From positions 1-25,473 of the IMG/VR virus record IMGVR_UViG_3300033067_000311: a DNA stretch of 25,473 nucleotides. The stretch is one strand, 5' to 3'. Each line of letters opens with the position of its first letter. Within the stretch, counting starts at the first letter, position 1. A program made the translations under genes and the position numbers. This document shows positions 11,451 through 25,473 of the stretch, piece by piece. The stretch is from a virus (Duplodnaviria > Caudoviricetes). A model generated the notes under the pieces. It made no database searches, was not told the origin of the DNA, and saw only the letters and a list, made by a program, of their open reading frames with translations.

Positions 11451-12131
11451 ATGTGCTCATCATCCAGTTCCAAAAAATCCGCAAAGGCTTCCGAGGCGCT
11501 TGCAGCCGAGCAATTTGCATGGCAGAAAGAGCAGGCCGCAAAGGTTGAAGCTGACGCCGCTGCCCGTCGCGCCGCGATGACCACCGGACTCGGGCAGATC
11601 AACTCGCAGTTTTCCGGCTTTGATGATCGCTACTACAAGGGGTTGCAGGACAACTACCTTTCTTACGCAAACCCGCAAATCCAACAATCACAGGAGCGGG
11701 CGCAGACAGGTCTGCGGTCGGCGCTTGCCAACAAGAGCAAGCTCAAGTCCTCGACGGACGCGGCGCAACAAGGCGAGCTTGCCAACACCTACGGCGGGAT
11801 TTTCCGCGATGCGCAATCAAAGTCGCTCGACTACGCCAACCAGCAGCGCAACCAGGTGCTTGCCGCCAAGCAGAACTCGATTGCGCAGATGTATGGGTCT
11901 GAGTCGCCCGACGTGGGATTGCAGGCTGCCAGCGGGGCAGTGGGGGCATTGCAGACCGGCCCGGCATTCGAGCCGATCAGTTCGCTGCTCGGGCAAGCCG
12001 CCCGCTACGCGACGATGGATTACAACAACTCGCTTTGGAACGGCCAGTCCTACGGCGTGTTCAGCCCGATGTTCAACAACAAGCAGTCGTCCGCGACGGG
12101 CGGTAGCAGCCAAGTCAAAACCATCAACTAG
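11451..12131 (+). CDS. internal virion / ejection protein 1, 226 aa
   Basis: Starts MCSSSSSKK. Ala/Gln/Ser-rich helical composition; position in the ejection cluster. Confidence 0.7.
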   Translation: MCSSSSSKKSAKASEALAAEQFAWQKEQAAKVEADAAARRAAMTTGLGQINSQFSGFDDRYYKGLQDNYLSYANPQIQQSQERAQTGLRSALANKSKLKSSTDAAQQGELANTYGGIFRDAQSKSLDYANQQRNQVLAAKQNSIAQMYGSESPDVGLQAASGAVGALQTGPAFEPISSLLGQAARYATMDYNNSLWNGQSYGVFSPMFNNKQSSATGGSSQVKTIN

Positions 12132-22241: not shown

Positions 22242-22251
22242 CCTTTCCAAC

Positions 22252-22973
<722 letters not shown>

Positions 22974-23079: not shown

Positions 23080-23586
23080 ATGCCAACCATCGCCGAGATC
23101 ATCGCCGCCAAGAAAGCCGCCGCAGCAAAGGACGAGCCAAAGTTGTTTGATGCACTGGCAGAGAAAATGGCCAATGCCAAACAACGGATTGACGATTCCG
23201 ATGCCGAGTGGAAGGAAGCCATAGACCGCATTGACCCGCCGGGAAAGCACAAGGCGGCAGCCATCGTGCTCTCAGCATCGACACCCATGCAGCCGGCGGA
23301 GATCGCGCAGAAGGCTCACTACGCGGAGGAGCGCAGCCTGTCCCGCAGCCGGGGAGAGGCAATCCCGATGACGCCGACAGCCGCAGACAAGGAGGTGGCG
23401 ACGTGGCACGAGGCGCTGAATGCGTTCGAGTCGAGTCTGTGCATCATGCGCGACCCGAAGGAACCGGACGTGGTGTGGCTGGCGATTCGCCCCGACCGGG
23501 AGGGACTGCCTCCACTGCTGGTTCACCGCCTGCCGGTGCTGGTGTGGGATCACCCGACAGCCACCTACCGCAGCGAGCCGTTCTAA
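23080..23586 (+). CDS. hypothetical phage protein, 168 aa
   Basis: AACCATG start, phage-like codon usage, co-directional with neighbours. Confidence 0.75.
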   Translation: MPTIAEIIAAKKAAAAKDEPKLFDALAEKMANAKQRIDDSDAEWKEAIDRIDPPGKHKAAAIVLSASTPMQPAEIAQKAHYAEERSLSRSRGEAIPMTPTAADKEVATWHEALNAFESSLCIMRDPKEPDVVWLAIRPDREGLPPLLVHRLPVLVWDHPTATYRSEPF

Positions 23587-23953: not shown

Positions 23954-24198
23954 TCTCGCCCGAACTCATCGCCGCCGCCAAGGCTGAGATTGCCAAGCTC
24001 CAGAAGGAGGCGGCCATCGCGCAACTCTCACCCGAAGACCAAGCACTGATGAAGAAATACCCACGCCACACGCTCGCGGCTGCACGGTTGATAGACAGCA
24101 CGCCACTTGCGCGCGGAATCACAGGCTGCCGTTCCGCCTTCGACCTAATCCAACTGCAAGAACGCAACAACTTCCACATCACAGACGACCACACATGA
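23950..24198 (+). CDS. hypothetical protein, 82 aa
   Basis: AGGAGG upstream; ATGA-coupled on both sides. Confidence 0.7.
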   Translation: MISPELIAAAKAEIAKLQKEAAIAQLSPEDQALMKKYPRHTLAAARLIDSTPLARGITGCRSAFDLIQLQERNNFHITDDHT

Positions 24199-24956
24199 AA
24201 ACAGACACCATGACAGAACCCGCCACACTCATCCTCGCTGGCTCCGGCTACGAGCTTGCCATCGCTCCCGAAGCGGAGAAGCGCAAGGCCGAGTTGCTTA
24301 AGATTGCGACCGCCGTGCGCCACGTCCGCGACAATCAGGAATCATCAGAAGCGCAGTATCACTTGCGCAACCTGGCCGCCATGCGGATCGAGGTTGAAAA
24401 ATCCCGCAAGATTATCAAGGAGCCGGTCATCCGCATCGGCAAGCTGATCGAGGCCGCTGCCGCCAACTTCATTGCCGATCTAGTGAACGAGGAGAAGCGC
24501 ATCGCGAAGCTCGTCGGCGACCATGCGGAAGAGGTGGTGAGAATCAAGCGCGAGAAGGAGGCTGCCGAGCGCAAGGCATTCGATGTAGCACGGGCCGCGC
24601 GTGAAGCCGCGGAGGCCGCTGCCGCTGCGGCGGAGAACACTGGCACCATCGCCGACGTGATCGCTGCGAAGAAAGCCGCGGCCGAGCGCGAGGAGACGCT
24701 GGCCGCGCGTCTGTCTGCATCCACTGAGGTTGCCGAGACCCGCATTGCCGATGGCGTGCGCTTCGCTTGGGACTTCGAGGTGGATAACATTGCCAATGTG
24801 TATCGGGCCGCACCGGAAATGGTGACGATGGAAATCAAGCGCGCCGCCGTGTTGTCATGGCTCAAGGTATTGGAAGAATCCGACGCCGATCCCGTTGCTG
24901 CTGCCTCGCTTATTGGCATCCGCGCGTTCAAAAAAAACGTAGTATCAACCCGCTGA
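24195..24956 (+). CDS. coiled-coil phage early protein (loosely Gam/Gp157-like architecture), 253 aa
   Basis: EVEKSRKIIKEPV...GKLIE coiled coil, Ala/Glu linker and a C-terminal WDFEV...GIRAF beta module, a layout common in phage recombination regions. Confidence 0.6.
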   Translation: MKTDTMTEPATLILAGSGYELAIAPEAEKRKAELLKIATAVRHVRDNQESSEAQYHLRNLAAMRIEVEKSRKIIKEPVIRIGKLIEAAAANFIADLVNEEKRIAKLVGDHAEEVVRIKREKEAAERKAFDVARAAREAAEAAAAAAENTGTIADVIAAKKAAAEREETLAARLSASTEVAETRIADGVRFAWDFEVDNIANVYRAAPEMVTMEIKRAAVLSWLKVLEESDADPVAAASLIGIRAFKKNVVSTR

Positions 24957-24972
24957 AATCCCCACCGAACCA

Positions 24973-25053
24973 ATGACTATGAAAACACAAGAAGTGAAGG
25001 CATGGAACGCTAGGGCTGTGACGCCCGGAGAGAAAGGAAACGCCAATGAGTGA
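24973..25053 (+). CDS. 26-aa leader ORF running into the first attC-like site
   Basis: Hand translation MTMKTQEVKAWNARAVTPGEKGNANE. The stop lies inside the attC loop, just after the next gene's ATG at 25046. Confidence 0.5.
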   Translation: MTMKTQEVKAWNARAVTPGEKGNANE

Positions 25054-25097
25054 AACTGAAAAGCTAGTCCGGGTCGATCACCAGCCCCTTGTTGTGC
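25002..25097 (-). mobile_element. integron attC-like recombination site 1 (96 bp)
   Basis: Minus strand: R'' GCACAAC, 5-bp spacer AAGGG, L'' GCTGGTGA (8 nt), TCGACCCGGA, loop, TCCGGGCG, L' TCACAGC (7 nt), 6-bp spacer CCTAGC, R' GTTCCAT. Confidence 0.8.
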
Positions 25098-25444
25098 CTC
25101 TTAATTTGTGGCTGCAATGGCATGGTGACGGCAACCCCGAAGATGACGGCGAGGTCTGCGAAAGCGAAGTGACCTGGTGCCGCGAGAAAATCTTTGATCA
25201 CGACGTTGAATATGTCCACGCCGACGAAATCCGCCGCGCCCTCATGGGACATCGCCGCTCCGAACTGTGGGGCGATACCGGACTGATCGCCGCCACCATG
25301 CGATGCGTCGAAGCGGTGGGGAAGTTGGAAGACCTCTACGCGCAAATGGACCCAGAAGGATTCTTCGCTCGCAAGATCGCGGCAATTCTTAAGCACAACG
25401 CTAGGGCTATGCCGCCCTCAACTGAATCAGACGATGGGAAGTAA
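25046..25444 (+). CDS. cassette-borne phage hypothetical protein, 132 aa
   Basis: AGAAAGGA plus ATG inside attC1. The core PLNLWLQW...EVTWCREKIFDHDVEYVHAD looks like a phage-type small domain. TAA lies inside attC2. Confidence 0.75.
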   Translation: MSETEKLVRVDHQPLVVPLNLWLQWHGDGNPEDDGEVCESEVTWCREKIFDHDVEYVHADEIRRALMGHRRSELWGDTGLIAATMRCVEAVGKLEDLYAQMDPEGFFARKIAAILKHNARAMPPSTESDDGK

Positions 25445-25473
25445 CAGCACAGCTATTGAGGGTCGGGCATCAG
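25393..25473 (-). mobile_element. integron attC-like recombination site 2 (truncated by window edge)
   Basis: + strand GCACAAC GCTAGGGCTATGCCGCCCTCAA ... TTGAGGGTCGGGCATCAG. Shares AACGCTAGGGCT with site 1, and the arms pair with the same three bulges. Confidence 0.75.
25434..25473 (+). CDS. probable start of next cassette gene (partial)
   Basis: ATG 25434 lies in the attC2 loop just before the TAA of the previous gene and reads MGSNSTAIEGRAS, open to the edge. Same layout as attC1. Confidence 0.45.
   Translation, partial: MGSNSTAIEGRAS

Follow-up and report, generated by a model that had tools for sequence, protein, structure and literature searches.

The virus record IMGVR_UViG_3300033067_000311, all 25,473 bases of which were analysed and are called the window here, very probably ends in the start of an integron-type array carried by a phage. 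In this array the genes run opposite to the polarity of the attC recombination sites, and an integron integrase (IntI) of a phage clade likely cuts the folded coding strand at each AAC triplet, which would let cassettes be swapped with their frame kept. Judged from the window and its relatives, each unit is made up of its own attC followed by a gene without a stop codon, and the AAC is an Asn codon on entering the next site. The stop comes from that next site, as does a nearby next start in about two thirds of sites. In relatives the arrays close with an attI-like motif and an IntI that reads in the same direction. Coordinates are collected in Table 1.

Table 1. Features at the right-hand end of the window
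Feature	Coordinates	Strand	Basis or remark
Core phage gene, 253 aa, just upstream of the array, not a cassette	24195..24956	+	homologues
Mini-ORF (open reading frame), 26 aa	24973..25053	+	sequence; enters site 1 with AAC in frame, stop in its loop
attC site 1	25006..25093	-	attC spacing scan, folding, family alignment
Cassette unit (inferred), 391 bp: own attC, then gene without stop codon	25008..25398	+	R''/R' match; identity breaks at both AACs
Shine-Dalgarno-like AGAAAGGA	25031..25038	+	7 nt before ATG 25046
Protein gene, 132 aa	25046..25444	+	start in site 1 loop, end in site 2 loop; homologues, codon-position changes
Minus-strand ORF, 110 aa, starting at R'	25064..25396	-	probable shadow frame of the + gene
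attC site 2, truncated at contig end	25397..25473	-	sequence; complete relatives

attC sites in the window

A strict spacing scan of both strands of the 25 kb (AAC, 5 nt, 8-nt L'', interior, 7-nt L', 6 nt, GTT) gave one match, site 1, with minus polarity; the bottom strand, the one that would recombine, is therefore the + (coding) strand. Site 1 is composed of R' (AAC, 25006-08), a 6-nt spacer, L' (25015-21), a loop, L'' (25078-85), a 5-nt spacer and R'' (GTT, 25091-93), and has the order R''-5 nt-L''(8)...L'(7)-6 nt-R' of an attC, an imperfect palindrome with extrahelical bases. These are T25074, A25077 and C25082, giving T-N7-C; sites with T-N6-C are excised by IntI1 (PMC3053210). Site 2 retains AAC (25397-99), L' (25406-12), ATG 25434, TAA 25442-44 and seven of the eight L'' bases, and lacks the last L'' base, the spacer and R'' because the contig ends there. 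Locus L018 holds a near-identical complete version of 86 nt with the ATG at an identical offset (+37), and a relative in runs X1 and X2 completes site 2 with an R'' GTT. An earlier, sequence-only reading of the window had given the sites minus-strand polarity, with which the strict scan agrees, and all its coordinates for the codons inside them (ATG 25046, TGA 25051-53, ATG 25434, TAA 25442-44) are correct. It had the region begin at 25021; site 1 really begins at 25006.

Folding energy does not reach significance by itself (z for site 1 about -1.5 to -1.6, with 14-16 of 200 shuffles equally good; truncated site 2 z -0.13) and was rejected as evidence for the site structure, for which the case is comparative. 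In an alignment of 30 sites of the family, pairing holds in 95.6% of 480 cells, two-sided changes occur in 13 of the 17 pairs, and one-sided (G-U type) changes number zero. Shuffles as good as this were 0 of 500, a count that is not a probability, the structure having been drawn from site 1 and the sites being related; slid controls gave 25-52% pairing. Such a pattern would suit a site acting as single-stranded DNA more than a stem in RNA. An Rfam search returned one weak, irrelevant match only.

The cassette unit and its boundaries

The unit between the two AACs behaves, on comparison, as a cassette, because its R''/R' ends match and homology to relatives breaks at each AAC. GTTGTGC at 25091-97 (R'' of site 1) returns in reverse complement at 25393-99, as GCACAAC, a 7/7 match within the window. 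To extend this, sites were collected with a structure-only scan, which found 141 in 60 of 122 sequences against 14 in shuffled sequence; 85 are unique. A pattern search gave 22 stretches, many of them chance, and a Pseudoalteromonas match had no credible site. Units between consecutive sites match at 4/4 R''/R' positions beyond the triplet in 29 of 41 cases (permuted mean 2.4, maximum 9; same-site control 3/83).

Mobility with breakpoints at AAC is seen by comparison only. At the first AAC of the 132-aa gene, mean identity among relatives is 0.29 to the left and 0.77 to the right (11 loci, near-duplicates included); at the second it is 0.78 to the left and 0.39 to the right (8 loci). One contig of run X1, possibly the source sample, has other DNA joined to a site-2-like attC exactly at 25397. 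In another, the DNA past the gene's AAC at 25399 resembles the attI motif, without a strict match. A syntenic relative in X1 and X2, whose contigs come from one study, has 615 nt in place of 411 nt and rejoins near site 2. None of the contigs examined has a joint skipping exactly the cassette; contigs drop rare variants.

Other boundaries and cargo vary. The same gene core is found with quite different attC sites, and so with different N-termini, the R''/R' match being kept (P0001-P0059; L059:961, L066:484), which points to cassettes having had their attC replaced. At L060:772, L062:315 and L059:596, CAC stands in place of AAC as the left triplet, giving His for Asn in the upstream protein; this may reflect insertion outside the canonical site or an R' variant. 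DNA methyltransferase genes of C5 and N6/N4 types are recurrent cargo (L003, L008, L040, L041, L028:10045-10914).

The frame rule and start/stop coupling

Antisense frame 0 is open for at least 50 codons at 69 of 82 sites (the 85 unique sites minus 3 with <150 nt upstream), versus 11-27 in the other five frames. Frame conservation at AAC across units, which the sequence-only reading had offered as a check on itself, is non-random: an ATG-started antisense ORF enters in frame with AAC at 67 of 76 family-like sites, versus 22 and 25 in the other antisense frames. At GTT the frame varies freely (22/17/13), as would be expected with a constraint on the crossover alone.

Starts and stops cluster inside the sites. 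Among 58 non-redundant sites, a stop occurs in 53, a start in 40 and both in 39, where shuffled interiors have both in 11.6. The pair overlaps as ATGA in 13 of the 39 (33%; null 0.75, maximum 5, or 6.5% of null pairs) and lies within 15 nt in 30 of the 39 (null 4.4, maximum 12). The two offsets in the window are -5 and -8. According to a review, attC hairpins block ribosomes rather than terminate transcription, and short ORFs inside them relieve the block (PMC8876359, section 3.2); coupling is therefore favoured over the suggestion that ribosomes crossing the hairpins limit termination.

Where the main gene ends early, short ATG-started ORFs (8-34 codons before AAC) enter the next site in frame 0 (L003:3692, L040:1900, L004:589, L005:7063, L011:7334 and the window at 24973). 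The last of these, the 26-aa mini-ORF, is likely an adaptor or leader, or a remnant.

The 132-aa gene on the + strand is real by its homologues and its pattern of changes, third-position changes dominating in 4/4 comparable loci: changes per codon position are 3/3/22, 3/3/19, 9/6/28 and 8/4/29 in the four loci, of seven close ones, that can be compared without indels. Its 15 residues from Asn onward are encoded across the junction into site 2. The family has 59 homologues including the protein itself, with a core that begins at (L)VxP, which R'' encodes, and ends at H-N; 43 of the 59 have the Asn, and the tails beyond it differ. The protein has no PHROG or Pfam match and no Atlas match at >=0.9. 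Searched singly against viral contigs it found no relative; a search with the alignment found 8 loci. The 110-aa minus-strand ORF is probably a shadow frame, not a gene: it has in-frame stops in 3 of 19 related loci, and most changes fall on its first codon position. A segment of 30-60 residues of cassette protein, marked by ELWGDxGLIAATMRC, also occurs as a module inside unrelated coiled-coil phage proteins (L070, L073, L081-L083, L100 and others), many of which end in xLxPxEP-like tails with ATGA overlaps and no attC.

What the sequence-only reading had said about translation survives in part, with narrower scope. Its placing of the credible gene on +, antisense to attC, is borne out, and expression from the minus ORF, which it had named as its refuter, is not favoured by the codon-position changes or by the stops. 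The site-encoded C-terminal tails it described, ...WNARAVTPGEKGNANE and ...HNARAMPPSTESDDGK, are correct, AAC being a codon in both. Two upstream ORFs do enter the sites in frame as it claimed, but the one into site 1 (ATG 24973) is just 26 aa long. It had each cassette carry its own start inside attC and take stop and tail from the next neighbour; the stop and tail stand, and the in-site start applies to 40 of 58 sites. Its continuously coupled operon agrees with the enriched start/stop spacing, but that any order of cassettes would give one was overstated, given the 40/58 sites with ATG, the 9/76 without a frame-0 ORF and the 20/36 units that are a single ORF. The Shine-Dalgarno-like sequence it noticed is present at site 1, and a near-identical site in L011 carries AGAAAGGAG, but it is not general. 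A universal Shine-Dalgarno sequence was rejected, its core preceding 6 of 40 in-site starts, as was a start always in an unpaired loop, pairing being about background. The sequence-only reading did not include the IntI and attI-like site that relatives have at the promoter-distal end.

The integrase clade and the attI-like motif

In L002, L011, L040 and L041 a tyrosine recombinase gene is found on the 3' side of the array and points the same way as the cassette genes, and the arrays of these four loci hold the same attC site family as the window. In L002 another attC-bounded stretch and about 1.3 kb stand between array and recombinase; L011/L028 carries terminase and replication genes. The integron-specific insertion is present in these phage-clade IntIs, aligned to VchIntIA, and the catalytic R, K, H, R, H and Y are kept in 119-120 of 120. 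The residues of VchIntIA that contact extrahelical bases are K209, W219 and H241 (PMC3053210); counted on the alignment, their equivalents are kept in 120, 111 and 114 of the 120.

The clade has at least 120 proteins, the best 120 of 524 matches all scoring at least 498 bits and being labelled XerD where named. Six of its IntIs, a group picked by similarity, form one clade (100/100) against 30 host IntIs; the tree is unrooted, with XerD on a long branch among the host IntIs, and carries no claim of ancestry. In 401 genomes of the probable host phylum, a clade member is found in the seed metagenome-assembled genome (MAG) only, the next score being 239 bits. Among 50,697 phage records there is no member, with a best match of 36% to class 1 IntI.

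A short distance before the start of intI, 8 of 8 related loci have an attI-like motif (L box ...AAT, 5 nt, GTT), which also precedes two more intI remnants; the array's last gene reads into it in frame and finds its stop there. In 7 related loci, 25 of 25 sites have the attC top strand opposite to intI, as do 55 of 56 in hosts; since this is the host arrangement, the platform geometry is canonical and it is the genes that are flipped.

In L044 (attI motif at 11767, minus strand) intI is internally deleted, and in L051/L052 and L058:388 the attI-like motif is followed by an unrelated gene; as read from these loci, the integrase is decaying in several phages. One Verrucomicrobiales MAG (G001; L128, L126) has a canonical IntI above the family cut-off, a phage-clade IntI and a further phage-clade fragment, and by this gene content is a natural setting for cross-talk between IntIs.

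Comparison with known systems

We used as host control 21 regions beside ordinary intI, 16 of them with sites. There 53 of 56 sites have a sense ORF ending at them, in most cases 1-25 nt short of AAC, and the sense ORF is the longer one at 49 of 56. In the phage-clade loci (8, with sites in 7) it is the antisense ORF that is longer, at 19 of 25 sites, and it is in frame 0 at 17 of 23. Genes co-oriented with the attC top strand and ending at or before R'', as in classical integrons, are found neither in the window nor in its relatives, where they are antisense. Treponema-type 'inverted' integrons have intI flipped and genes sense to attC; they resemble the phage arrays in that intI is co-oriented with the cassette genes, whereas the phage arrays keep the canonical intI/attC geometry and flip the genes instead.

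The phage arrays share with bacterial integrons (class 1, Vibrio cholerae, Verrucomicrobia) the attC spacing, extrahelical bases, R''/R' match and a likely crossover at AAC, and the relatives share further a probable IntI with the extra insertion, a putative attI beside the intI 5' end and an attC top strand opposite to intI. They differ in that the genes are carried by the attC bottom strand and point to the putative attI and to intI, attC is at the 5' end of the gene and read in frame, the genes have no stop of their own, one frame is kept at the crossover, and new cassettes would enter far from the promoter. [quoted passage not shown]

Phage attC clusters and integrons are already published (Qi et al. 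2023, PMC9892861), often with DNA methyltransferases, as in the relatives, and many without integrase. Those are typical arrays with bacterial-type integrases, and IntI1 recombines attC sites of such phages (PMC9892861, section 3.4). One Polaribacter phage has divergent attC directions (PMC9892861). The main text of that paper does not use the words 'opposite', 'reverse' or 'start codon'; its supplements may hold inverted arrays. A scan of TJE1 gave weak matches only and no inverted in-frame pattern, and the motif of PMC5737381 is a different one. ORF-11 in attI1 and the short ORFs inside attC (PMC8876359) are alike in that a frame crosses the recombination site with a stop from the incoming cassette, and in termination-reinitiation across the attC hairpin. 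Those are short peptides on the sense strand, whereas in the phages cargo genes start and stop inside attC, on the opposite strand and at most junctions. Literature that took in few subscription journals held no account of cassettes that are inverted, translated and frame-locked, nor of the phage IntI clade.

Proposed mechanism and alternative explanations

We propose that IntI would recombine the folded coding strand between AA and C, the known crossover point (PMC4792948). Incoming cassettes would enter at the promoter-distal attI, and one upstream phage promoter would read genes, cassettes and intI. On completing one gene, ribosomes would unfold the hairpin and begin again at the ATG close by, a restart that would take the place of a Shine-Dalgarno sequence. 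Arrays without intI, possibly including that of the window, would rely on IntI from a helper phage or the host. We lean, beyond this, to a phage lineage with an integron class of its own: a dedicated IntI clade, attI at the 3' end of the early operon, and cassettes that are plug-in translation modules (attC first, in-site start, no stop, an Asn codon on the crossover), shuffled with the operon intact and silent if captured by a host, the window holding the first junctions. A captured phage cassette would face the host cassette promoter (Pc) and stay silent (PMC5027507); the cassette gene was not found in the 401 genomes, in a search without a positive control.

Several results weigh against this proposal. 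The window has no intI and no attI, the contig ending in site 2. The loci sharing its upstream core genes have no integrase match among those fetched, and the window phage may for that reason depend on a helper. The best family for the phage-clade recombinases is TIGR02249 at 180-229 bits, far above Xer models but under the 265 cut-off; Trp stands where VchIntIA has H240, and the beta-4,5 region is reduced in length. The attI-like motif was defined on the same 8 loci in which it was counted, and the comparison loci were picked by similarity to the window site or gene and are related to one another. As to translation, the in-site ATG is absent from 18 of 58 sites (about 30%) and, in predicted RNA folds, mostly unpaired in only 18 of 38, close to the background level; an ATG-started frame-0 ORF is missing at 9 of 76 sites; and in-site stops are frequent in other frames too (64 and 53 of 85). 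One site-to-site ORF makes up 20 of 36 short units and fails to do so in 16, to which missed sites and two-gene cassettes contribute.

The lack of an integrase raises a different possibility, which we consider somewhat doubtful: that the window holds an orphan cluster of attC sites lacking an integrase (CALIN), moved by the ordinary IntI of the host or through homologous recombination of hairpins that resemble each other, with no role for the phage IntI clade in this phage. At least two attC without intI nearby make a CALIN, and the window has two sites, the contig ending inside the second. Neither the window nor the loci that share its core genes have an intI; L044 has a decayed one, and in L051/L052 and L058 the attI motif precedes another gene. 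In the probable host phylum 114 of the 401 genomes have an IntI-like match, and IntI1 can recombine attC sites of other phages (PMC9892861, section 3.4). Yet the same site family is found in the four intI-bearing arrays, and breakpoints at AAC together with dissimilar neighbouring sites speak against homologous recombination. A CALIN would in any case alter who cuts, not the cassette design.

That design may also be read more sparingly. Cassettes could be real and frame-locked, the rule merely giving stop-less genes a short predictable tail, with in-site starts present as the first cassette DNA and no coupling needed. The 30% of sites without an in-site ATG and the free frame at GTT would suit this, and A-rich loops could start translation without a Shine-Dalgarno sequence. 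We regard it as unlikely in view of the 13 of 39 ATGA overlaps where 0.75 are expected, the 30 of 39 pairs within 15 nt, and the short frame-0 ORFs that bridge the gap where the main gene ends early. Hardly credible is a reading in which ordinary host cassettes were inserted backwards, or the hairpins are RNA regulators, with the minus-strand ORF a real gene. This ORF does start at R', and the sense shadow frame is the longest at 14 of 82 sites; but purifying selection acts on the + frame, the minus frame has stops in 3 of 19 relatives, host cassettes end their sense genes at R'', and there are neither G-U type changes nor a relevant Rfam match.

Genome context and host

The window has genes for tail fibre, terminase, portal, major head and endolysin, all on +, and the array forms its right-hand edge. 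Homologues of the 253-aa core gene have 47-65% identity in 12 locus records, and in L007/L047 a different attC array lies 3' of the homologue. The host is probably a species of Verrucomicrobia, because two MAG contigs (Verrucomicrobiales, Verrucomicrobiota) share the same attC site family.

A promoter scan of the window gave 4 promoter-like sites against 1.4 expected, none assignable, and a terminator scan gave a number at chance level. An (AAC)n-rich run at 22248-22280 lies directly 5' of ATG 22281, and neighbouring starts are likewise A/C-rich and without a Shine-Dalgarno sequence. Two different early genes share a 38-nt repeat, at 23086-23123 and 24645-24682 (84% identity), and with it a similar encoded peptide, TIAxxIAAKKAA.

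Implications

If the array works as proposed, related phages would swap genes without breaking reading frames. This would be a concrete, enzyme-driven route to the gene mosaicism of phage early regions, under a frame rule that is absent from ordinary integrons. It predicts many small phage proteins with N- and C-termini set by recombination sites and neighbours. The clade of at least 120 IntI proteins is open to the standard attC x attI assay, and a phage-associated IntI clade makes the viral origin speculated for integrons (PMC4792948) testable, for which the tree given here is unrooted.
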